DNA from: a virus
Lineage: Duplodnaviria; Heunggongvirae; Uroviricota; Caudoviricetes
Length of the DNA stretch: 28,514 bases
Reading direction: 5' to 3' (one strand)
IMG/VR virus record: IMGVR_UViG_2534682329_000006
Both the position numbers and the translations under genes were made by a program. Of this stretch, positions 12,315 through 28,514 are shown one piece after another (positions within the stretch are counted from its first letter, which is position 1; each line of letters begins with the position of its first letter). The notes under the pieces are model-generated. The model made no database searches, had not been told where the DNA came from, and was given only the letters and a program-made list of their open reading frames with translations.

Positions 12315-12350
12315 AAGCGCCTGCATTTGCAGGCATTCTATTATTCTTTA
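12315..12350. terminator. Bidirectional rho-independent terminator between convergent Q and the 98-aa ORF
   Basis: Hairpin GCCTGC-ATTT-GCAGGC (12319..12334) flanked by T-rich sequence on both strands, directly after the Q stop codon. Confidence 0.55.
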
Positions 12351-12637
12351 ATTAGTGCCCCCCATACGGAGTCCATATCAACTTCCTCAACTACAATGCA
12401 AATGGAGCAATGAACATGACCATCAGCAATGCGTAGGTAATTGAAAAGCCTTGTTTTCACCCGCCCATCAAATTGAGCACGCCCACCCTTATTCGTAATT
12501 GTTACGTAGTCTCCCACATTTGGAAGCATCAAAAGCGAGTTGTCTTCTGAATTACACCCTACAACCTCTCCATCATCATCAGGGCGATCCTGACCTTTGC
12601 GCATATATTGAAAATCATAGCTATAAGTAGTTTTCAT
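12341..12637 (-). CDS. Hypothetical small protein (98 aa) between Q and cos
   Basis: Open reading frame only; no motif recognised; weak Shine-Dalgarno; AT-rich relative to flanking core genes. Confidence 0.35.
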   Translation of the reverse strand: MKTTYSYDFQYMRKGQDRPDDDGEVVGCNSEDNSLLMLPNVGDYVTITNKGGRAQFDGRVKTRLFNYLRIADGHVHCSICIVVEEVDMDSVWGALIKE

Positions 12638-13031: not shown

Positions 13032-13736
13032 TCACCGAACGGATACTTTTGCATAAATCAAAGGCCTATCCGAAGAGCCATTTTTACGTACGACCACTCC
13101 ACTGACATCATGGTTTTTACTTAGATCACGTAATGCGGCGCACAATGCCTTGTTGACATATCCGAGATGATTGTCGTTTTTCGTAACCAATATGGCCAGC
13201 GGATCAACCGTATTGGTATCTTCATTCCGCAATATGACTTCATCACCAATTGATATCTCATCAAGCGCTAGACGCCCTTCCTTGATCATGTGCCTCGTTC
13301 CAGCGACCTCCATGACGTAATCGAAAGGTGGCCGAACAGAAGACAAGTCTGGGACAAAATAAAAACCATCACTAGCAACTTTTCCGCCAGTACATGCGAG
13401 CAAAACGAAGTCATTCTCTCTAAAATCAGCAGGAAGACGAAACGTCAGCAAGTAATCGTCAAAATCTTCTCTTTTCCTGGAGGGTAACCTTCTTGAAAAG
13501 GTTTGCATAACGTCTTTGCGATGAGTCGCAACTTTTATATCAAAAGCAGGAAAACCGCGAAAGCCGTTATCCCTAGCTTTAGCAAAATCTTTGCTATCAG
13601 TAAGATAATTAAACTCGTAGCCTTCAGACTCATCTTGAAGAAGCTCACCAACGACATAGCGAGAGCCTCCGTCAACCGGTTGCCATGTCAGTAAGAGCCT
13701 ACTGGGCATGGGAATGTTTTCTATTAAGATAGTCAT
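13032..13736 (-). CDS. HIRAN-domain protein (unknown N-terminal domain plus C-terminal HIRAN-like domain)
   Basis: C-terminal segment (…GDEVILRNEDTNTVDPLAILVTKNDNHLGYVNKALCAALRDL…) fits the HIRAN pattern (L.RE..N..D.NAI.V....LGY…A..L); start overlaps the kinase stop (ATGA coupling). Confidence 0.6.
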   Translation of the reverse strand: MTILIENIPMPSRLLLTWQPVDGGSRYVVGELLQDESEGYEFNYLTDSKDFAKARDNGFRGFPAFDIKVATHRKDVMQTFSRRLPSRKREDFDDYLLTFRLPADFRENDFVLLACTGGKVASDGFYFVPDLSSVRPPFDYVMEVAGTRHMIKEGRLALDEISIGDEVILRNEDTNTVDPLAILVTKNDNHLGYVNKALCAALRDLSKNHDVSGVVVRKNGSSDRPLIYAKVSVR

Positions 13737-14644
13737 GAAGTAACACCTTTAATCAGTTCAATACGCATGTTTGTTACACGAACAATCCATGCAGCACGTT
13801 CTCTAGTCAGCGGAACAGGGCAGTTTATTTCCGTCAACTCCGCAAAAGTTGACTCCCAAAAATCATGGTTCAAAAGAGCCAGTTTTTCAGCTACCCGCTG
13901 TTTTAATGCTTCTTTTTTATCACAAAGTTCTTTGATGAACTCTAAATGACCTAATCTCTGATACTCATCTTTGCCCAGAGTCTTACGCAAATGATGCCTT
14001 CCCCGGCCAACATGCTCCCTGAGTCTATGATCGGTCCAATCGGCAACATGCTCCGGAAAGCGTTCGTAACATAAGCTCGTACCATTATCGAAAAATGGTG
14101 CAAGCTGACACTCGCTGGCTAAAGGTGAAAAGACAAACCCCCAATTTTCTTGATGTCTATCTGTATTACCTATCACAGCGTCAAAGAGAGCCATGTCCTC
14201 CAACCACTCAACATAGTCAACTTTAAGAGCTTTCGCGATAATCCTCAGCCCTTCAAGGGAATGCTGAGCTCCTTTCTCGCGATCAAAATTTGGATCTCTT
14301 CGGACAAAGTAATCACCAGCGGGAGCAAATTTCTCATAATCTTTATGATGAAACCACTCAATGAGGGCCCCGCAAAACGTATGCCCCAAATCATTAGTCT
14401 TTACCGATGGAACTGCTTTGGGGACATCAAAACCAAGCTTCAATCCAATCCTGTAGGCAACGATCTCACACCAAAATTGATCTGGATACTTTTTAATACT
14501 TCTCTTAAAAAGATACGGCCACGATGCTTTGATACCATGGGGTGCTACATCAGGGGAAATAACCAATGCCTTAGAGCGAGCACCAACAGGATATTGTGCG
14601 AAAACATCTAGCTCAGTCCAATTGGTTACATCTAAGCAATCCAT
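13733..14644 (-). CDS. HipA-family serine/threonine kinase, short form (303 aa, lacks the HipA N-terminal subdomain)
   Basis: Catalytic-loop motif FDAVIGNTDRHQENWGF matches the HipA/CtkA signature (…IGNTD.H..N…); about 300 aa versus about 440 for E. coli HipA. Confidence 0.7.
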   Translation of the reverse strand: MDCLDVTNWTELDVFAQYPVGARSKALVISPDVAPHGIKASWPYLFKRSIKKYPDQFWCEIVAYRIGLKLGFDVPKAVPSVKTNDLGHTFCGALIEWFHHKDYEKFAPAGDYFVRRDPNFDREKGAQHSLEGLRIIAKALKVDYVEWLEDMALFDAVIGNTDRHQENWGFVFSPLASECQLAPFFDNGTSLCYERFPEHVADWTDHRLREHVGRGRHHLRKTLGKDEYQRLGHLEFIKELCDKKEALKQRVAEKLALLNHDFWESTFAELTEINCPVPLTRERAAWIVRVTNMRIELIKGVTS

Positions 14645-14659
14645 AGCTAAGTCCTATAT

Positions 14660-15220
14660 TTATTTTTTATTTAAATTCATATAGATATGAGAAACCAGTG
14701 CGATCTGAAATAAAACATCATCGAATGCTGTGTGCCTGATGCCAGTGAACTTTTTGTCAGCATGAGAAAAAATTCCTTTGCTTTCACCAAGCGCTAAGAT
14801 GGTTCTGACGTCAAGAGTATCTCTGAATGACCATGGGCACTCCAGACCTGCCTGTGACAGGGCATGATGCATGATAGTGCAGTCGAACTCTTTCCCGTTT
14901 CCCCACACTTTTACTCGGCCATTACGATTATGAAGAACAAACGCCACAAATTCATTCAGAACGTCTAAAAGGTCCTTAGTGCCACCAAAATTTTCGTTTT
15001 TAGCTTCAGAACTTTGATACATCCACCACTTTACAGTGGAGGGGGCAATGGTTCTGCCTGCTTGTTCATGATCAAGCGAAATAACTTGATAGAAACCCGG
15101 ACCAACCTCGCCAGTCTCCGGCACGAAGAAAGCCGCACCAACCGAAAGGATATAAGCCGTTTTTTCAACATCCAATGTTTCTATATCTAACATTACATGA
15201 TTCATAACAAGCATTTGCAA
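14660..15220 (-). CDS. DEDDh-type (DnaQ-like) 3'-5' exonuclease
   Basis: Exo I motif MLDIETLD near the N-terminus and Exo III motif HTAFDD near the C-terminus; about 185 aa. The track start is TTG; in-frame ATGs follow at 15214, 15205 and 15193. Confidence 0.7.
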   Translation of the reverse strand: MQMLVMNHVMLDIETLDVEKTAYILSVGAAFFVPETGEVGPGFYQVISLDHEQAGRTIAPSTVKWWMYQSSEAKNENFGGTKDLLDVLNEFVAFVLHNRNGRVKVWGNGKEFDCTIMHHALSQAGLECPWSFRDTLDVRTILALGESKGIFSHADKKFTGIRHTAFDDVLFQIALVSHIYMNLNKK

Positions 15221-15550: not shown

Positions 15551-15599
15551 CTTCCCTCCTATCACGACCACGGACACACGATAGCTGTATGCATGCATA

Positions 15600-15615
15600 C
15601 TGTATATATATACAG
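15600..15615. promoter_or_regulatory. LexA operator (SOS box)
   Basis: CTGTATATATATACAG is a perfect match to the LexA consensus CTGT-N8-ACAG with an ideal AT-rich spacer; lies about 50 nt upstream of the small ORF and inside a promoter-like AT-rich region (TTGACG on the minus strand upstream). Confidence 0.75.
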
Positions 15616-15712: not shown

Positions 15713-18106
15713 TCAGTACCACTGCCGCCATTTGTCATCTTCCTGCAGCCGGTGTTTGCGGTAAAAAATACGCAGCCCGGCACCTGACGGAATGCTGCCG
15801 CCACGTAAAAGTAGATCCACTTCAGCATCGCTTGCATTAAATCCCCGGGAGCTGAGTTCTGCCTCAAGCTGCAGGCGCTGTTGCTCCGAAATACTCTGTA
15901 TGTATGCTTTTTTCCGCTTCGGTTTTACCAGTCTCAACCTGGCTGTCAGCTCCCGGCGTTCCTTCTGGCCCATATTGTGTAGGTAATCCTGCAGTTCCTG
16001 CTCATTCATGGTTTTAATATCGGGCAGCTCCCCCCCTGTCTGGTTCAAATTTTCAACAGGGGGACAGTTATTGCCACGAGTCCAAGGGGCGCAAGCGCCC
16101 TGGTCGGCTGCCGCCTCCTGAACGTCAACGGCTTTACGAACCATTTTCCACTTCACTGCATGAGTGCAGATCTTGCCCTCTGCAATGGGTGACCAGATGC
16201 CATAAATACGAATGCCGTGATCGCCATAGGCGGTCGGCTCTTCGTTGATTTCATAAGCGGTTCTGATGAGGTGATATTTACGGGGTACCAGTACGCCGCC
16301 CTGCTTCATGATGTAGGTGGCAAAACAACCAGCATCAGCAGCAGCCAGAATGGCATCAAGACGCGGGTTATCCAGTACCGGCGCACCTGCTTTTTTGTCA
16401 CCCTGTTGCCTTGCCGCCTGACCAGCCAGCAAGCGAAGTTCACGGTAAGCCTGACGCCCCGGAATACCAAAGAAGCGGAATTGCTGAACACGATGCAGAG
16501 ACGCCCAGGCATTCACGTATTCAGCGTTATCACGCAGAGATTTACCCGTTTCCTTGCTGATCTCGCCAGCCAGACCACGACCGTCAATGTTCTTACTGAT
16601 ATATTTCGCGATGTAGCTTGTCGGCGTTCCTTTGCGCGGGTTAATCAACTCAGACTTAAAGCGCGGCCCAGTGTTATTGCCCAGCTCCTCGCGGTCTTCA
16701 CGGATGGCAAACTTACGCAGTAATGCAGTGATGGCACGGCGGTCTTTTTTGCGCATGAAACACAACAGGTGCCAGTGAACTGTGCCATCATGATGCGGCT
16801 CAGCCACCCGCACGCCATACCAGCGCAACCCGGCTTTGTGCATCGCCTTACGAAATGCAGCAAACATGCCGACCAGATAATCGCTGCTTTGTCTTACCGT
16901 CGCGTTTGTCCAGGTCGGGTTTGGTCTGCCGTTATTTAGCGTGGAATGGAAACGCGACGGACAGGTGATAGTGTAGAAAACGGCGCAGTCACCGCGCATT
17001 TCCGCGATAAGCTCCAGACCTTTAACACAGGCCATCATCTCATTGCGGCGATGCGCAGGGTTGCTGCTGCTGGCGTTTACCACATCCTCCATGTCCAGCG
17101 TGTCGCCGTCTTCGTTCACCAGTTCATGAGAACGGAAAAACTCCAGCGACTTACGGCGCTGCTCACGTTTATGCATCACGGCTTCATAGCTGACATAAGG
17201 AGATGCTTTTTTGCTGACCAGGCAAACAGCGCGCAACTGCTCTTCCCGCCATTCGCAACGCATCTTCCATAATTTCCGATACCACCAGTCGGCGCACAAC
17301 ATACGCGCCAGCGAACCCGGAATGAGTTCATAGGGCACGGGTTTACGGCGGTTTCTTTTCCGACGGAGTTGCTCAAACGCAGGTGGGATGACATCCAGAC
17401 GCAGGGTTTCCGCTGCCACCTTTTCCCATGTCTTGCGGATTTCTTCTGGCTTAACGTCATCGGTGGCATACAAATCACCACAAGCTGCATCAAGGCACAT
17501 ACTCATATGCGCAGCTACCAGGGTGGACAGGCGTTTCACCTGATCCTGACTCATTTCAGGCAGGATCAGCAGGCCGTCCAGCCCTTCATGGCTTGCCATA
17601 AAGCGAAAAGATGCAGATAGCTGACTGTCGCGTACATGCTCCAGTCGTTCCAGACATGGCTTAATCGTCTCACGTAAATAGCGGGAATAAGCCTTTGGCC
17701 TGCCCAGGCTGCTGAAGTATTTAATACGTTGCATCAGCGGCTTGCTGATATGGGAAGGCTGAGCGTTGACATCCGCCAGAATGACCATGTCCGGATTAAA
17801 ACGCTGCTGCTCATGCGCCAGCTTTGCCCGGCTAATTAGCTTATCCTGCTCCATTTCGCGCTGGACAGGATCACGGGATTCATTAAAGAAATAACGCTCC
17901 CAGACCTGATCACTCAGTGCCTCGCGGCGCAGTTGTTCCTGCTCGTTATCGGCAGCGTACAGAGTGATCAGGTTTGAAAGCGCAGAAACCGGCGCAACTT
18001 CCGCCGGGTCCAGATAAGGGTTAATGGCCTTTTTCGGGCTGTTCCATGAGAATGCTGCGGCAGCCTCGTTAAAGCCGCAGCAGTTGTTCATATCGGCATG
18101 ACTCAT
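15713..18106 (-). CDS. A: Replication initiation protein gpA (rolling-circle HUH endonuclease)
   Basis: 797-aa ORF (P2 gpA 761 aa) with the HUH motif (…[10 protein letters not shown]…); start overlaps the dam stop. Confidence 0.88.
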
Positions 18107-21151: not shown

Positions 21152-21784
21152 ATGATACATGTAAAGGTTGGAGAGAATACAGGGGGAAGAGAGGCTATCC
21201 ATAGACTAATGGCAGCCTATGATTTCAAGTCCAGACAGCAACTTTGCGATCACTTAGGCGCATCAAAAAGCACCATGGCAAACAGATACTTAAGAGATAG
21301 TTTTCCTGCAGAGTGGGTGATTCAGTGCGCCTTGGAAACAGGAGTTTCTTTACTGTGGCTAACCACCGGACAGGGGGAGCCAGGTTCAAACATTGAACCC
21401 CAAAAAAATATCAATTCCGTGAACTCCAGCAAGGTTATACCTCTTTCTGAACTAGTATCTCCTGAAATTGACAAGGCGACTCTCAACGGTGGTTTATTGA
21501 TCGATGCTGGAAAAGCAATCATTGATAGCAGCATACTCCCCTCAGACTCAAGCAACCTACTGCTGGTGACTACTTCTGGTGATTCTTATTTAATAGATCG
21601 CAACCAAACACCACCAGTAAATGGTATGTGGTTAGTCGATATCGACGGGATAAAAAGCATTGTTAAATTGACTCGACTCCCGGGAAACAAATTAGTAGTA
21701 CATCAGGATGATTCATCGTTTGAGTGTGGCCTAGATGACATTGAGGTAGTAGGCCGCGCACTGAAAATCATTAAGAGCCTTTGA
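21152..21784 (+). CDS. cI: CI immunity repressor (phage 186 type)
   Basis: N-terminal region (…YDFKSRQQLCDHLGASKSTMANRYLR…CALETGVSLLWLTTGQGE…) follows the 186 CI pattern; AGGA Shine-Dalgarno; immediately upstream of int. Confidence 0.75.
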   Translation: MIHVKVGENTGGREAIHRLMAAYDFKSRQQLCDHLGASKSTMANRYLRDSFPAEWVIQCALETGVSLLWLTTGQGEPGSNIEPQKNINSVNSSKVIPLSELVSPEIDKATLNGGLLIDAGKAIIDSSILPSDSSNLLLVTTSGDSYLIDRNQTPPVNGMWLVDIDGIKSIVKLTRLPGNKLVVHQDDSSFECGLDDIEVVGRALKIIKSL

Positions 21785-21785
21785 T

Positions 21786-22802
21786 ATGACCATCAGAAAA
21801 CAGCCGAACGGAAAATGGTTGTGTGAGTGCTATCCCAATGGACGCAATGGTAAGCGCGTGCGTAAGCAATTTGCTACGAAAGGCGAAGCCATTGCTTTTG
21901 AAAGCTTCACAATGGAAGAAGTGAATAAAAAACCGTGGTTGGGTGAAAAGGATGATCGGCGACGCCTATCAGAATTAATTGAGCTTTGGTATTCCCTGTA
22001 TGGTCAGACACTCGCAGACCCCAAGCGCCTCATGGCGAAACTTAGAATTATCTGTAATGGTCTAGGCGACCCCATCGCCTCAGAACTGACAGCCGGTGAC
22101 TTTACGAAATACCGCGAAGCACGGTTAAAAGGTGACGTTCGTAACGAAGACGGCACACTAATGTCGCCAGTAAAACCACGCACGGTGAATCTTGAGCAAC
22201 GTAACCTATCATCGGTTTTCGGCACATTGAAAAAACTAGGCCACTGGTCAGCACCAAATCCTCTCGCCGGGCTGCCAACATTTAAAATCGCTGAGGGGGA
22301 ACTGGCGTTCCTGACCTCGGAAGAAATTAAACGTCTGCTAGATGCCTGCGCTGATTCTCAAAACCCCAGTCTGCTTTTGATTGCAAAAATATGCCTGGCC
22401 ACCGGCGCACGCTGGAGTGAAGCCGAAAACCTGCAGGGCCATCAGTTATCTAAATACCGCATCACTTATACCAAGACGAAGGGTAAGAAAAACCGCACCG
22501 TGCCGATATCTCAAGATCTGTATGACGAACTCCCCAAGAACAGAGGGAAGCTATTCACCCCGTGCAGAAAAGCCTTTGAACGAGCAGTAAAGCGAGCTGG
22601 CATCGAGCTGCCAGAGGGCCAATGCACTCACGTGCTACGTCATACATTCGCCAGCCATTTTATGATGAATGGCGGAAACATACTGGTGCTACGCGATATT
22701 CTGGGCCATGCCGATATAAAAATGACGATGATCTATTCTCATTTTTCACCAGAACACTTAGAAGATGCAGTAACTAAGAATCCTTTAAATTATATTGAGT
22801 GA
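21786..22802 (+). CDS. int: Tyrosine integrase (P2-type site-specific recombinase)
   Basis: 338-aa protein with the catalytic H-x-x-R box (HVLRHTFASH) and C-terminal tyrosine region (IKMTMIYSHF); last core phage gene before att. Confidence 0.88.
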   Translation: MTIRKQPNGKWLCECYPNGRNGKRVRKQFATKGEAIAFESFTMEEVNKKPWLGEKDDRRRLSELIELWYSLYGQTLADPKRLMAKLRIICNGLGDPIASELTAGDFTKYREARLKGDVRNEDGTLMSPVKPRTVNLEQRNLSSVFGTLKKLGHWSAPNPLAGLPTFKIAEGELAFLTSEEIKRLLDACADSQNPSLLLIAKICLATGARWSEAENLQGHQLSKYRITYTKTKGKKNRTVPISQDLYDELPKNRGKLFTPCRKAFERAVKRAGIELPEGQCTHVLRHTFASHFMMNGGNILVLRDILGHADIKMTMIYSHFSPEHLEDAVTKNPLNYIE

Positions 22803-23869
22803 AAATCATGTTAAGTGATACTTGTTATACAGTGATTTATATTACAGCAATCGTTTTATTAGTATTTATTACAATAGTAAAAAAATGGTACATACTTGAT
22901 AAAAGAAATTTATTTCGTCAGAAATTATTTTGGATTTCAGTTTTAACACCTTTATTTTCCTTTATCTATTTTGTTTTTTTCACATGGTGGGGAAAAGAAC
23001 CAGTACTCTCCGCACATGGCTATTCAAGATTTTACGAAATAAGCAAATTCCCTCTACTATTGCTAGCTAGTGCAGTTCCTTTGGCTTCGATCGTCAACAA
23101 TATACATCGCACTATACAAACCGAAGCTCAGATCAACACCGCTGAAACGAAAAATGCAGTCGATAGATATTTAGCACATGAGAAAAACTTTATTGAGAAA
23201 ACAAAGGAAATATTCGCCTACAATCTTCAAAGCGCGAGAGGCTCAGATGGAAACCTCATTAAATTCAATGGCGAACCAAATATCACTTTGTTTACAGCAG
23301 ATGAAATTAAAATTTCCAACCCATATCTTTTATATACAAAAATATACAACAAATCAACTATAGAGACCACATCTAACTTCACCGCAAACCCTGATTTTTT
23401 AGTGCAATTAAAGGAGTACTTAAACACAATTAATAATACTCTGTCGGTTCAACACTCTATAGATGAATATAATCCATTAAGTTACATGATTCGACTTAAC
23501 ACTTTGTCATATAATACAGCCTCGTTATTAGACCTGATATGTACATCCCCCATATCTCATGTATACTGTTTGATAAAATATGATGGGTATCAATTAAAAA
23601 CATTTACACTTGAAGAACAAGTATTCGCCGATATTTTAGAAATATCATATCTTCTATCAAGAAAACTAATTCGTTTGATATATAATGAAGATATACCACA
23701 TTACGACAACATTTATAATTACTTATATGTTGGTAAGTTGAGGTTTAAATTCAGAAAACACGCCTATTCTTTACAAGCATTTTCTTCGCAGGAATGGGCT
23801 GATTACGTTTCTGAAGCACTAACTCTAGTTCCTAACGAAGTTGGCGGCACTTTGGCGGCAGCGCATTAA
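22799..23869 (+). CDS. Hypothetical membrane protein, AT-rich cargo gene between int and att
   Basis: About 355-aa ORF with two N-terminal TM helices then an N/Y/I/K-rich domain with no recognised motif; visibly AT-rich; start (GTG at 22799 or ATG at 22808) overlaps or abuts the int stop. Confidence 0.55.
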   Translation: MKIMLSDTCYTVIYITAIVLLVFITIVKKWYILDKRNLFRQKLFWISVLTPLFSFIYFVFFTWWGKEPVLSAHGYSRFYEISKFPLLLLASAVPLASIVNNIHRTIQTEAQINTAETKNAVDRYLAHEKNFIEKTKEIFAYNLQSARGSDGNLIKFNGEPNITLFTADEIKISNPYLLYTKIYNKSTIETTSNFTANPDFLVQLKEYLNTINNTLSVQHSIDEYNPLSYMIRLNTLSYNTASLLDLICTSPISHVYCLIKYDGYQLKTFTLEEQVFADILEISYLLSRKLIRLIYNEDIPHYDNIYNYLYVGKLRFKFRKHAYSLQAFSSQEWADYVSEALTLVPNEVGGTLAAAH

Positions 23870-23955
23870 AAATTAGTAAAATGGACAAACACTACATAAC
23901 AATAACGCACTGTTTTTAAATGCAAACTACTGTTTTTGCTATAGTAAAAATGGTA

Positions 23956-23992
23956 TGTAGGAATTTCGGACGCGGGTTCAACTCCCGCCAGC
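23956..23992 (+). other. att core: fragment matching the 3' end of ssrA (tmRNA), marking the prophage/chromosome junction
   Basis: TGTAGGAATTTCGGACGCGGGTTCAACTCCCGCCAGC matches the 3'-terminal T-arm/acceptor region of E. coli tmRNA as I remember it, but the upstream 300+ nt of ssrA and the final TCCACCA are absent, so it is a partial copy, not the gene. Confidence 0.6.
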
Positions 23993-24122
23993 CCAATCAT
24001 GATTGGACGGTGTAAGGACAACACCAACAAAAACAGGAAGTTAGAAGTCTCAGCAAAACACCGACCAGACGGTGAGGAGACATAAAAGGATACGCAAAGG
24101 AGCCGCGGCTCCTGGTAACATG

Positions 24123-24146
24123 AAAGCCCACAGATGTGGGCTTTTT
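24123..24146 (+). terminator. Rho-independent terminator (plus-strand T-tract; may also act on the convergent autotransporter gene)
   Basis: Hairpin GCCCACA-GA-TGTGGGC followed by TTTTT, about 10 nt beyond the autotransporter stop. Confidence 0.6.
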
Positions 24147-24155
24147 CGTTGATGG

Positions 24156-27100
24156 TCAGAACGACCAGTTCACACCAGCTACCGCGTTCCACGGGGATTC
24201 CACACCGGCACTATGGCTATACCCCACCCCAAGATGCCCGCTTAACGTACTGCTGAATGAGGCTTTAATACCTGCCTGGTATATTCCACGTCTGCCCGAC
24301 AAATAATTGACGAAATTACCGTCACTATTCACTTTCACCCGGTTATCATCGACAAATTCTTTGCGCACAGCCGGCTCAACTTCCATACCGTTCCCCAGAC
24401 GCATGTTGTAACTCAGCGTTGCGCCCAGTTCACGATATATACTGCGGGTATCGACTGATTTCGATTTCATGCCATTGGATAAATGATATTCGGGGTTATC
24501 AGCGGTGAACCCCGTTAACGATGCATACGGCGTCAGGTTCCAGTTACCATCGGTAAATCGCATCCCGGTTTCAATGTGACCGCCCAGCCCGTTGCTGTGG
24601 TAACTGCCATTGGCGGCTCCACCGCTGCTCATTTTACCTGCTACGTTACTTTTAAAACGGTTCAGCTTCACGACACCGTCCAGATAGAAACCACTTTCAT
24701 GTTCCCAACTGGCATAGCCGCCCAGAGAATAACTGCCCACACTGCCATGTCCTCCGCGATCAAAACCGATATGTGAATGGGAATAGCCCATAAAAGCGCC
24801 TAGCGTGGTAATTCCTTCAGGAATATCATTACGGCTGTCGATCCCCACTGTCATTCCGGTCAGCGTCTGCTCAAACCCGGCACCCGCATCGGTGGTGACA
24901 TTATTACGGGTGTTATACGTCGCCCCCCAGACATTATTGTTGTGTGGACTCGCTTTCATTATGTTCAACCGCTCGCGAATACTGTTTAGCTCAGCATCAA
25001 ATACCAACGGTAATGTTGCTGCCATATTGAGTACGGCTGCCGTAGAAGGCGTAATGCGTTTCTCCGGAACGGGTGTCGGCGTTGGATCGGGAGTAGGGTC
25101 TGGTTTTGGATTTGGGTCTGGCTTTGGATCGGGTTTTGGGTCTGGCTTTGGATTTGGGATGGGGTCCGGGTTGGGTTTGACATCATTGGTCAGGTTCCAG
25201 TTGCTGTTGCCGTCACTTTTCAGGACATACTCATAGGTCCCAAGATCAACGAAACCGCCGGTATTGCCCAGCGTAAACGAAGCATCCCCTCCCCCTGTTT
25301 TCACCAGCGTCATCGCGTCGTCAGACTGTGGGCTGACGCCGGTATCCTGAACAAAGATTTTAAAATTACCAGTGGCGTTGTTGTTGACGACCAGTTGATC
25401 GCCCCGGGAGCCTGCAACGTTGGTATGCAGGTAGAAATTACCGCTACCGGAAAGTTCATTGGTTGTCAGCGTATTGTAGATACCGTTAGTTGTGGCAGGC
25501 GCTGCTGTTTGTGCTGACAAATAAACATCACCGTCGTTGAGTAGCAAACTGTTTACTCTATATTCGCAGTTGCTGGTACCTGCACAGGAATTATTGCTGT
25601 TAAGCCAGACACTGCCCCGGCTGGCAGCCGTCAGGTCGGCAAGCGTGGTATCGACGCCATTTCCCAGAGTCAATGTCGCGCTATCGGTAATCCGGACCGC
25701 CCCTTCGAGTTTAACTGGCGTAACATTATCCCGTGGCGTCATTAACGACAGGCTTCCTGTCGCGCCACTGACCGATGCATCCGCCAGCGTACCTGCGTAG
25801 ACGATTGCCGTACCGCCAGCGACCTGGAGATCTTCTGCCCGGGCCAGAGCCTGAAACTCATCTTTTGACCGCCCAAGGGTATATTGCCCGCCAGAGTTAA
25901 CCTTTGTGGCGGAGTCCTGACCCAGGTTTTGCATTGCCCCACCCTTGCCAACCGTGGAGTCGCGAGCTTCGGTACCTGCTAATACCAATAAATTACCGCC
26001 ATTTTCCAGCAACATATTGGTCGCTAAATTGCCGGAAATGGAAAAAGTACCGTACTGGTGAGTACCGCTGATTTCAATACCGTTAGCCGTGCTCGTCTGG
26101 AGAGCGGCACCGCTGTTCTGGACGATATCTGTCGCTTTGCCATTATCGTTGACTGTCAGCGTACCGCCTTCATTGATCTTTGTTTTTATTGCCTCTCCGT
26201 TAGCTGAAACTGTTTGTATTCCGCCGTCGTTAATTGTTGTCTCATTCGCCACACCCTCGACAATTTGTTCACCGCCGGTGAGCGTCGTGCCTGTCGCAGT
26301 GGCTTTTGTTTTGACGATCTCCCGTCCGCCCATATTGACCTGTGTTTTGTCAGAAGAGGTGTCTGACTCCACGGTTAACACGCCGCCATTTGCCAGCAGG
26401 ATATTGTTCGCCGCACCCTGCTCGATGCTGAACGCGACGCCATCCGCGCGTGTTCCTGTGACCCGCGTCGCCCTGGTGGTTGCAACCAAAGCGCCCTGGC
26501 TACTCTGCTGTATCCCCGTTGCGCTGCCTTTCTCCCGCACATCGAGTGTGCCGCCGTCATTAAGCACCGAGTTTTCAGCCAGACCGCCCTCATTAACTAC
26601 CTGTGAACCCCCATTAATAATGGAATCTTCCGCTGTCCCGTTTGCCATAATTTGTTGTAGGCCAGAGACGATATCGGTATTGATCGCCTTACCATAATTC
26701 TGAACGGTTTGCGTGCCACCATTGATGTGTGTTTTATCTGTTGACCCACCATCAACAATTTGTTCACCACTTTCGATATTTGCCTCAGTGGCTAAACCAT
26801 ATACCGTTTGCTTGCCACCTTTGATATTTGCTTTATCAGAAGTGGCACTGGCATATATTGTTTGGGTGCCAGAACTATTAAGTACAGTGCCAACATCTTT
26901 TCCATAAACATCCATTTTGCCGTTGGCATTAATAATCGTATCAACTGCCCGGGAACCAGTGACGACTGTTAATGAGCCAGCGTTTTCCAGCACTACATTT
27001 TTAGCTTCTGAATTCCTGATGTAGAAAGCATCACCATAACTGTTGGTTCCTTCGATAAGTGTTCCGGAAGTCGTGGAAGCAATTAATGCGCCGCCGGATT

Positions 27101-28514
27101 GTTGCTCTACATGCTTAGCCTCTCCACCGTCCTGAACCTCCAGAATGCCGCCATTGTTAAGTCTGGTGGTATCTGTTTTGGCCTCCTTCTGGACGATCAG
27201 TTTACCGCCAGCATCAACGGTGGTATTTTTCACCGAGGTTTTAGCCACTACCGTCAGTTCGCCGGTATTTTCCAGCACAACATAATTAGCCTCCCCTCCG
27301 GTAATAGTGAAGTGAGAGAGCTTGTTGTATCCTTCGATATCAGTCCCTGCGCCCGTGTTGGCAACTAAAGCACTGCCCGTCTCCTGGTTAACCCCATGTG
27401 CAATACCGCCGGTATAGACAATCAGCGAGCCTCCGGCGCTAATATTGCTGCCAATTGCCGTACCATCTTTCTCAACAACCTGCCGGCTCCCGGAGGATAT
27501 AATTGTTGTGTCAGCTTTCCCGCCGCTTTTGATATTTTGCGTTACGCTGTTGATATTGGTGCCTGTGGCTATGCCATAATTATTAATATTCTGTGTGCCA
27601 CCATTAATTATGATATTTGTCGCGTTTCCTGCAACATCCATAACCCCGCCATTATCTATTCGGGTCGCATCAGCTTTACCATTGGTTAAAACTGACATTG
27701 TTCCTTTATCTTTAATAATCGTCTTGTTTGCGGAATGAGATACTTCTAAATGGCCTCCATTTTTCAGCAACACATTGTCTGCCACTTTATTGTGGATGGA
27801 GAATGCACCTTCACTATTCGTACCGCTCACCGTCGTACCGTTAGTGTTAGTTTTTAAAATTGCACCATCGTGCTGGGTAACATTTGTTGCCGTACCACCA
27901 CTAACATCAAGCACGCCACCAGAATAAACTTCAATAACATCCGAGGTGCTGGTGTTATCAACAATTTGCGTGCCACCAGAATAGATATGCGTATTTTTTG
28001 CCGTTGACTTACTATTCAGAGACTGAGTTCCGCCTTCAATCGTCGTGTCCAGCGCACGGCTCTCATATACTCTTTGCTCACCGCCATTTTTAATGGTGGT
28101 TGTTTCTACTGTGCTCTGTTCAACATACTGTCGACCACCATTTATGGTTGTGTTCGTTGCCAGACTTCCTTGCGTGATGTCCTGAGAGCCAGACTTATTT
28201 ATCGTTGTACTGTCGACATGCCCCTGAGTTGTTACTCGTTGGCTGCCACCATCAATGATTGTTCCATTCGCAGTCCCCCCCTCTATGCGTGAAGTACCAC
28301 CCTTAATTGTCGTGTCATTGCTGGTACCACCTTTATGAACATATTGATTGCCACTTTCGATTATCGTGCCAGTAGAAATTCCTCCGTACTCAATTGACTG
28401 TCTGCCTCCATTAATGGTTGTATTATTAGCTTGCCCGTTAATATCGGCATGGATTGATACTAGTTGCTCGCCACCAGTTTCAATAATACTACTATTAGAT
28501 ATCCCACCATAGAC
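24156..28514 (-). CDS. Autotransporter adhesin (AIDA-I/YpjA-like), partial; N-terminus lies right of the window
   Basis: C-terminal beta-barrel translocator ending …VAGVNWSF; proline-rich PDPKPDPKP linker; long beta-helical passenger with repeated NGG/T/S-rich units. The frame stays open upstream of the track start (27914) with no start codon, so the gene continues beyond the window. An ssrA-proximal island followed by such a gene resembles the E. coli K-12 ypjA locus. Confidence 0.8.
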   Translation of the reverse strand, partial: VYGGISNSSIIETGGEQLVSIHADINGQANNTTINGGRQSIEYGGISTGTIIESGNQYVHKGGTSNDTTIKGGTSRIEGGTANGTIIDGGSQRVTTQGHVDSTTINKSGSQDITQGSLATNTTINGGRQYVEQSTVETTTIKNGGEQRVYESRALDTTIEGGTQSLNSKSTAKNTHIYSGGTQIVDNTSTSDVIEVYSGGVLDVSGGTATNVTQHDGAILKTNTNGTTVSGTNSEGAFSIHNKVADNVLLKNGGHLEVSHSANKTIIKDKGTMSVLTNGKADATRIDNGGVMDVAGNATNIIINGGTQNINNYGIATGTNINSVTQNIKSGGKADTTIISSGSRQVVEKDGTAIGSNISAGGSLIVYTGGIAHGVNQETGSALVANTGAGTDIEGYNKLSHFTITGGEANYVVLENTGELTVVAKTSVKNTTVDAGGKLIVQKEAKTDTTRLNNGGILEVQDGGEAKHVEQQSGGALIASTTSGTLIEGTNSYGDAFYIRNSEAKNVVLENAGSLTVVTGSRAVDTIINANGKMDVYGKDVGTVLNSSGTQTIYASATSDKANIKGGKQTVYGLATEANIESGEQIVDGGSTDKTHINGGTQTVQNYGKAINTDIVSGLQQIMANGTAEDSIINGGSQVVNEGGLAENSVLNDGGTLDVREKGSATGIQQSSQGALVATTRATRVTGTRADGVAFSIEQGAANNILLANGGVLTVESDTSSDKTQVNMGGREIVKTKATATGTTLTGGEQIVEGVANETTINDGGIQTVSANGEAIKTKINEGGTLTVNDNGKATDIVQNSGAALQTSTANGIEISGTHQYGTFSISGNLATNMLLENGGNLLVLAGTEARDSTVGKGGAMQNLGQDSATKVNSGGQYTLGRSKDEFQALARAEDLQVAGGTAIVYAGTLADASVSGATGSLSLMTPRDNVTPVKLEGAVRITDSATLTLGNGVDTTLADLTAASRGSVWLNSNNSCAGTSNCEYRVNSLLLNDGDVYLSAQTAAPATTNGIYNTLTTNELSGSGNFYLHTNVAGSRGDQLVVNNNATGNFKIFVQDTGVSPQSDDAMTLVKTGGGDASFTLGNTGGFVDLGTYEYVLKSDGNSNWNLTNDVKPNPDPIPNPKPDPKPDPKPDPNPKPDPTPDPTPTPVPEKRITPSTAAVLNMAATLPLVFDAELNSIRERLNIMKASPHNNNVWGATYNTRNNVTTDAGAGFEQTLTGMTVGIDSRNDIPEGITTLGAFMGYSHSHIGFDRGGHGSVGSYSLGGYASWEHESGFYLDGVVKLNRFKSNVAGKMSSGGAANGSYHSNGLGGHIETGMRFTDGNWNLTPYASLTGFTADNPEYHLSNGMKSKSVDTRSIYRELGATLSYNMRLGNGMEVEPAVRKEFVDDNRVKVNSDGNFVNYLSGRRGIYQAGIKASFSSTLSGHLGVGYSHSAGVESPWNAVAGVNWSF
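25078..25178. repeat. Short in-frame tandem repeat encoding the PDPKPDPKPDPNPKPDPTPDP linker
   Basis: Repeating GGnTTTGGnTCTGG-type units on the plus strand (antisense of the Pro-Asp-Pro-Lys codons). Confidence 0.6.

Follow-up and report, generated by a model that had tools for sequence, protein, structure and literature searches.

A probable attR junction of a Fels-2-group prophage at the 3' end of Escherichia coli ssrA, and the possibly functional RNA trailer displaced by it

The subject of this study is a junction between prophage and chromosome within IMG/VR virus record IMGVR_UViG_2534682329_000006, a stretch of 28,514 nt given as one strand, which is called the window here and whose coordinates are used throughout. 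The junction contains a partial copy of the 3' end of ssrA, the 363-nt E. coli gene for transfer-messenger RNA (tmRNA), and it lies close to the chromosomal autotransporter gene ypjA. Chromosome-side ssrA ends were compiled from Williams 2003 and others in Table 1 of Onodera et al. 2022 (PMC10107115). That table gives CGCCAGC-CCACCA for CP4-57, CP4So and a P2-integrase prophage of Shewanella, CCCCAGC----CCA for an island of Yersinia pestis, and -----CA for another end, while intact ends are listed for Fels-2, SopE-phi and SpaX (PMC10107115). The excision of CP4-57 writes the deletion of T357 into ssrA, which destroys the G3-U357 pair needed by alanyl-tRNA synthetase. With delta-U357, trans-translation and tagging are abolished, ArfA is derepressed, and the mutation is lethal without arfA; other tabulated alleles, when placed in E. 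coli tmRNA, were inactive as well and derepressed ArfA (PMC10107115). CP4So in Shewanella acts like CP4-57 (PMC5148205).

Fels-2 and SopE-phi of Salmonella share with the window the phage family, the gene order, the 186-type integrase and the ssrA 3'-end target, as well as a long core that restores the gene and 186-type arm repeats on both sides of this core. They differ in that the host of the window is E. coli and its phage is closest to Elveevirus cartapus. Moreover, the published junctions of Fels-2, SopE-phi and SpaX keep an intact CGCCAGCTCCACCA, whereas the copy in the window reads CGCCAGC----CCA. The attR of CP4-57 in K-12, where the ssrA fragment is annotated as the pseudogene psaA, is situated as in the window between the element's end and ypjA, is followed by the identical trailer, and has a chromosome-side ssrA end without T357. 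However, CP4-57 is a P4-type island with an att identity of about 16 nt and an extra C missing, while the window holds a P2-family phage with 38 nt, and the window allele lacks three more nucleotides (one CCA unit) than that of CP4-57. The Ype11X junction of Y. pestis CO92 likewise has ----CCA after CCAGC, but it differs in species, in integrase type (P4) and in the base before CCAGC (CCCCAGC as opposed to CGCCAGC in the window). Seen against these systems, the junction is an ordinary, well-documented arrangement and a further example of known biology. What sets it apart from the published cases is the eroded chromosome-side ssrA end in a Fels-2-group prophage of E. coli, together with a nested series of alleles across the E. 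coli population, and the only element that may be new is a conserved structured trailer next to the ssrA copy.

Identity of the junction

The stretch is very probably attR, the int-proximal junction of a Fels-2-group prophage of the P2 family at the ssrA 3' end. An earlier sequence-only reading of the window had called it the distal attachment junction of a P2/186-like prophage at ssrA, and the integrase, the P arm, the arm repeats and the attP of the phage Cartapus all bear this out. From position 1 to 24000, the window is 94-96% identical to Peduoviridae phages and prophages, including the sequenced phage Cartapus (genus Elveevirus), and these relatives are annotated with P2-type capsid, terminase, tail, gpA, cI and int genes. 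Of the complete E. coli genomes, the best match extends over 87% of the prophage part. The integrase contains the Pfam domains Int_N (arm-binding; 1.8e-29, 102.9 bits) and Phage_integrase (1.6e-24, 87 bits), and it is 90-95% identical to its counterparts in about 28 phage records, compared with about 39-41% for integrases of the P2/L-413C type.

Similarity to prophages that carry other cargo genes resumes exactly at 23842, the first position of the P arm, and in a side-by-side reading this arm lines up with the P arm of the Cartapus attP. It begins with two direct repeats of the arm type, TGGCGGCA, whose reverse complement TGCCGCCA agrees with the arm-site consensus tgccGCCActt of 186-type integrases of P2-like phages (PMC3448106). 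The repeat pair recurs at the attL of the related prophage L001, on the P' arm (13289 and 13300), and the attP of Cartapus has it on each of its two arms. This attP is ordered as P arm, ssrA 319-363 (the complete 45 nt, ending in GCCAGCTCCACCA), AATAAATCAAGGGG leading to a terminator, and P' arm. At the attL of the related prophages L001 and L006, ssrA is intact and completed by exactly the Cartapus-type phage sequence. Because related lysogens have such a phage-completed, intact ssrA at the far end, the feature in the window is read as attR.

The core itself is an exact copy of ssrA nucleotides 319-356, which takes in the T arm and the first part of the acceptor 3' strand and is, with 38 nt, slightly longer than the about 37 nt of tmRNA identity originally noticed. 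The Rfam tmRNA model (RF00023) matches it with 28.9 bits and E=5e-10 in E-value mode (gathering score 47), and the confident alignment is limited to the last 45 or so positions, comprising the T arm and the acceptor 3' strand. ARAGORN reported no tmRNA for the window, and with its gathering thresholds Rfam reported nothing, because the ssrA match is too short. Positions 23955-23992 are a fragment of tmRNA and not a gene. In unoccupied sites, the gene ends in GCCAGCTCCACCA followed directly by ATCATGATTGG, while the window reads GCCAGC----CCA followed by the same ATCATGATTGG, so that the trailer opens with ATCATG in both. The copy was at first thought to break off before the expected TCCACCA. 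This holds insofar as the four nucleotides TCCA are lost, among them T357 of the G3-U357 pair, but the copy does run on to the CCA end.

The comparison with the ssrA-ypjA interval of prophage-free strains, which the earlier reading had proposed, was made with an unoccupied site built from the last 141 nt of ssrA and window positions 23996-24160, and this was searched in 5,426 complete E. coli genomes. The trailer adjoins ssrA without interruption in 2,528 genomes, with 100% identity among the matches listed. The genomes of these listed matches are annotated with ssrA and directly thereafter ypjA, and the native sequence reads GCCAGCTCCACCA and then ATCATGATTGGACGG.

Erosion of the chromosome-side ssrA end and its consequences for excision

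The allele of the window (delta-4, the deletion of TCCA) belongs to four nested eroded alleles that, taken together, occur in about 1,300 of the 5,426 genomes, compared with the 2,528 unoccupied sites. As counted with allele-specific 44-mers, 7 genomes carry T>C, 650 delta-T, 88 delta-4 and 551 delta-5, and the same spectrum of alleles is found in metagenome contigs. Next to the same P arm, locus L003 has the intact end, L002 has T>C (GCCAGCCCCACCA) and L001 has delta-T (GCCAGCCCACCA). The series CTCCACCA, CCCCACCA, CCCACCA, CCCA and CCA may have arisen in this order, by one substitution and then by slippage in the C-run and in the CCA repeat. For a Fels-2-group prophage of E. coli, an eroded chromosome-side ssrA end is unlike the intact junctions published for this group.

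The earlier reading had also considered that the junction was reworked by successive integrations at the ssrA hotspot. In its fullest form, this would mean that the eroded end is older than the prophage, as the scar of a previous occupant such as a CP4-57-like island, which we regard as rather unlikely. It would equally have to be assumed, with the same low likelihood, that the present phage obtained the scar by integrating beside it, or through recombination between tandem att sites that deleted the older element. The same alleles are indeed found beside unrelated elements: delta-T adjoins CP4-57 in K-12 and a P2-type remnant in L001, and delta-4 adjoins a lambdoid-type prophage (L007) and a P4-like satellite (L009). 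Tandem occupancy is also known, as strain 573 has the same phage and then a second integrase island, and the full 44-mer including the T arm is matched by only 14 of the 88 delta-4 genomes. However, the closest relative of the junction, which shares the cargo gene and the P arm and matches it at 99.4% over 677 nt, ends its eroded ssrA copy in CCACCA where the window has CCA. As these two differ by one CCA unit, at least the last erosion step came when this type of prophage was already present, and the difference points to slippage in place and not to a second element. The loss of a unit from CCACCA is furthermore an easy and recurrent slippage, so that shared alleles need not mean shared ancestry. 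For the earlier steps, the flank may still have been inherited through successive occupants, because the same alleles also flank unrelated elements. Reworking by other elements is partly supported, by the distribution of the alleles, but not for the final step at this junction.

The integration and excision of this prophage can be pictured as follows. The attP would be made up of four parts, namely the P arm, 45-46 nt copied from the ssrA 3' end, a terminator of its own and the P' arm, and the 186-type tyrosine integrase would bind the paired arm repeats TGCCGCCA and the core and recombine attP with ssrA. At the resulting attL, ssrA would be completed by the 3' end and the terminator supplied by the phage, while the chromosome's own ssrA 3' end and the native trailer would be displaced by the length of the prophage and come to lie beside ypjA. 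The displaced copy would no longer be needed, and it has eroded at its acceptor-stem end. With a crossover 5' of the lesion, where the 38 nt of perfect identity lie, excision would rebuild an ssrA that ends in GCCAGCCCAAUCA, with neither the G3-U357 pair for alanine identity nor a proper CCA. The lesion would in this way be written into ssrA, and the cured attB would carry GCCAGCCCAATCATG. The rebuilt tmRNA would be inactive and ribosome rescue would shift to ArfA, as was demonstrated by experiment for CP4-57 in K-12. If the prophage in the window excises, an inactive tmRNA is the probable result.

Several points weigh against this picture. If the exchange takes place within the last 7 nt of the core, the loss of four nucleotides would block excision instead of passing the lesion to ssrA. 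For Fels-2, SopE-phi and SpaX, published lists give intact junctions, which means that erosion does not characterize this phage group, and the mutational order of the nested alleles is taken from their shapes and not from a phylogeny. In addition, the left end of the prophage lies outside the window, and an intact ssrA at attL is seen in relatives only. If the lesion does transfer, curing or induction may leave cells without functional tmRNA that depend on ArfA, and such a loss would be relevant to prophage stability and to strain engineering.

Some of the genomes that were met in these searches deserve separate mention. In E. coli strain 573 (L006, 36497-38023), the second integrase island comes directly after a prophage of the same type, whose attR abuts the ssrA-end copy of the other element and not the native trailer, so that two elements stand in tandem at the ssrA hotspot. 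Strain NMBU-W12E19 (L001, 13349-16618) has the closest relative of the junction, a degraded prophage from which most late genes are deleted and in which a retron-like reverse-transcriptase gene and IS421 lie between ssrA and ogr. In the laboratory strain E. coli DTU-1 (NZ_CP026612.1, 4278429-4278472; H116), the annotated ssrA itself has the delta-T357 end, an appearance expected of a genome that lost CP4-57. Strain A36 matches the delta-4 44-mer exactly, but it was set aside as evidence on this phage, as it carries an unrelated prophage and no ypjA.

The two palindromes and the native ssrA trailer

The two perfect 14-bp palindromes of the earlier reading, CCAATCATGATTGG and GGAGCCGCGGCTCC, are situated exactly where it had placed them. 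It had suggested that they could be binding sites of recombination proteins or relics of another element. The proteins to be considered would be the integrase at its core sites, the excisionase and IHF. This suggestion draws on the facts that palindrome 1 abuts the core identity, that the core sites of tyrosine recombinases are inverted repeats, and that two such palindromes lie within 120 bp when 1.7 are expected in the whole window. The count as such does not make a single 14-bp palindrome remarkable, as the window has 5 of them and at least 5 occurred in 8 of 300 shuffles. Decisive is that both follow ssrA base for base in island-free genomes, and that they are found in other genera as well. 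The phage attP sequence past the CCA end differs, and neither palindrome therefore belongs to attP; palindrome 1 is entirely lost at some occupied sites (L014, L016 and L075), and palindrome 2 is located about 105 bp past the core. We consider a role as recombination sites or relics highly improbable. Because the trailer directly follows ssrA in the island-free genomes, the palindromes are parts of the native ssrA trailer and not sites of the phage or of recombination. Both probably form hairpins.

Palindrome 1, which is conserved, consists of the CCA end of ssrA and the first 11 nt of the trailer. Over 80 distinct variants, 95% of its cells are paired, and no covariation and no compensatory change was seen in these variants for an RNA hairpin at this place. 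In palindrome 2, which reads GGAGCCGCGGCUCC as RNA, 98.5% of the cells are paired, a G-C pair is changed to G-U in 13 variants, and two double changes occur, an example being GGAGTCGCGACTCC in haplotype B. Such G-U and compensatory changes are typical of an RNA stem on the plus strand.

The stretch 23996-24146 is the native 3' trailer of ssrA with its own terminator. The earlier reading had placed a terminator and then a chromosomal autotransporter gene after the junction. Both are there, with 24123-24146 folding as an intrinsic terminator (a strong hairpin and a T-run) and ypjA ending at 24156 on the minus strand. A simple terminator scan did not flag 24123-24146 on the plus strand. This terminator is also present in the empty sites, and its stem covaries (GC 61, AU 16). 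Two pairs of the hairpin at 24009-24025 covary as well (GC 44 and AU 33; UA 39, AU 20 and CG 18), and in the central hairpin at 24047-24081, changes from U-A to U-G fit the plus strand only; part of this hairpin served as search anchor, so that its near invariance is partly by construction.

The trailer is not limited to E. coli. It was also found in Escherichia albertii, E. ruysiae, E. whittamii, two Citrobacter species and Pseudenterobacter, and further in 115 metagenome contigs, in many of them directly after an intact tmRNA gene; in one metagenome variant, the tmRNA has a GGGGG/CCCCC T stem. The loci compared were L008, L011-L019 and L021-L135, and the pairing was evaluated on the 80 variants. 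Contigs that share 94% identity with E. coli in ssrA share about 85% in the trailer, compared with 58% upstream of ssrA and 48% past the terminator, although the retrieval of homologues by exact 20-mers internal to the trailer inflates this apparent conservation. Six helices of the trailer have 97.6% of their cells paired versus 38-48% when the partners are slid, and G-U variants are compatible with the plus strand only. Within E. coli, the trailer occurs in two deeply diverged haplotypes with 32 differences over the first 175 nt (L007, L008 and L009 compared with window 23996-24170). One haplotype goes with ypjA, the other with glaH in strains without ypjA, and between the two there are compensatory changes both in palindrome 2 (GGAGCCGCGGCTCC versus GGAGTCGCGACTCC) and in the terminator stem.

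From these comparisons, the stretch of about 150 nt may be a so far undescribed, widely conserved structured RNA of Enterobacterales, a view that we hold tentatively. Like the 3' external transcribed spacer RNAs, it would be a structured RNA downstream of a stable RNA gene that ends in an intrinsic terminator, and like RNAs of the CsrB/CsrC type it contains AGGA several times, once in a hairpin loop. Unlike CsrB, CsrC and the Rsm RNAs, it has no sequence or model similarity to these families and only 6-7 GGA motifs. The GGA motifs are found at trailer positions 10, 21, 41, 61, 81, 93 and 104. Shuffles gave P = 0.04 for the 7 GGA and P = 0.001 for the 6 AGGA (1.4 expected) in 127 nt, with the shuffle controls ignoring the relatedness among the sequences. 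One AGGA is in the conserved loop of the covarying hairpin, and others of the GGA motifs lie partly within stems.

It is a possible but uncertain further step that 23996-24146 acts as a functional RNA and is not a mere spacer with a terminator, with the regularly spaced AGGA motifs as putative binding sites for CsrA. It would then be the 3' external part of pre-tmRNA in island-free genomes and the 3' end of island transcripts at occupied sites. The identity that exceeds that of the flanking intergenic DNA, the helical pairing with covariation in three helices, the plus-strand bias of the G-U variants and the excess of AGGA, one of them in the loop of a covarying stem, all speak for such a role. 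No Rfam family matches the trailer, and neither a description nor the sequence itself was found in a limited search of open-access text. On the other hand, the 20-mer retrieval inflates the apparent conservation, the controls disregard relatedness, and the models of CsrB, CsrC and RsmY/Z gave no match to the trailer at E up to 10; a weak rsmX match (E=1) is on the opposite strand, at 24121-24200, and runs from the terminator into ypjA. In K-12, moreover, tmRNA works with the trailer replaced by CP4-57 sequence, and the trailer is therefore not needed for the maturation of tmRNA. Islands that insert in ssrA carry the trailer away, which may explain why it went unnoticed in K-12. If it binds CsrA or another RNA-binding protein, the insertion and excision of islands at ssrA would rewire its expression, and a functional trailer would be a new RNA element tied to the most heavily used integration hotspot of enterobacteria.

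Other candidates in this region were rejected. A 28-codon open reading frame (ORF) from the ATG at 23999 has stops in haplotype B of E. coli and in Citrobacter, and its ATG is GTG in E. albertii. Weak matches to isrB, rsmX and asX2 (E 0.7-2.5) extend from the terminator into ypjA, on the strand opposite to the trailer. A minus-strand ORF of 108 aa at 23866-24192 extends over both phage and host DNA and is spurious.

Feature coordinates, cargo genes and neighbouring observations

The coordinates of the features are collected in Table 1. The slot between int and attR is a variable hotspot, as judged from related prophages that carry different genes there: GapS1 in L003, a RES-domain protein in Cartapus and another hypothetical protein in L002. 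For the cargo ORF of the window, Pfam gave a sub-threshold match to DUF3810 only and PADLOC gave no match. The last codons of this ORF overlap the arm repeats of the integrase. The reading frame of ypjA has no internal stop up to the end of the window.

Table 1. Features at and around the junction, in window coordinates
Feature	Position	Strand	Basis
CI repressor gene	21152..21784		profile search
Tyrosine integrase, 186/Fels-2 type	21786..22802	+	Pfam domains and integrase comparison
Variable cargo ORF between int and attachment site, GC 0.35	22799..23869	+	ORF
P arm of the phage attachment site (attR side)	23842..23954	+	common to prophages with different cargo genes
Two direct arm-type integrase repeats TGGCGGCA, reverse complement TGCCGCCA (starts 23842 and 23853; 11-bp spacing)	23842..23860	+	
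Attachment-site core, 38-nt exact copy of ssrA 319-356, ATGTAGGAATTTCGGACGCGGGTTCAACTCCCGCCAGC	23955..23992	+	identity to E. coli ssrA
Residual CCA of the eroded ssrA 3' end (native TCCACCA to CCA; U357 lost)	23993..23995	+	comparison with empty sites and other attR alleles
Palindrome 1, CCAATCATGATTGG	23993..24006	+	also in island-free genomes
Native ssrA 3' trailer with own terminator, displaced by the prophage	23996..24146	+	contiguous with intact ssrA elsewhere
Hairpin GGUGU-AAGGACA-ACACC with conserved AGGACA loop	24009..24025	+	two covarying pairs
Central hairpin GUCUC...GAGAC around CACCG-ACCAGA-CGGUG, nearly invariant	24047..24081	+	folds, pairing
Palindrome 2, GGAGCCGCGGCTCC, trailer hairpin	24099..24112	+	folds, pairing
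Intrinsic terminator AAAGCCCAC-AGAU-GUGGGCUUU and T-run, native ssrA terminator, just past the ypjA stop	24123..24146	+	fold
ypjA, 3' part, chromosomal autotransporter gene, runs off the window	24156..28514	-	annotation of near-identical genomes

Elsewhere in the window, two more perfect 14-bp palindromes, GTATGCATGCATAC and TGTATATATATACA, abut each other at 15587-15614. The gene for the replication endonuclease (15713-18106, minus strand) has its stop about 100 bp upstream of them. A cargo block of low GC content (0.43) separates the portal gene from the replication genes and comprises 13032-14644 (minus strand) together with 14660-15220 and 12341-12637. Its HIRAN-domain protein and its HipA_C-like kinase match the two-gene PADLOC candidate defence system PDC-M03 (B 5.8e-37, A 1.6e-34), and an Rv2179c-like 3'-5' exoribonuclease adjoins this candidate pair.

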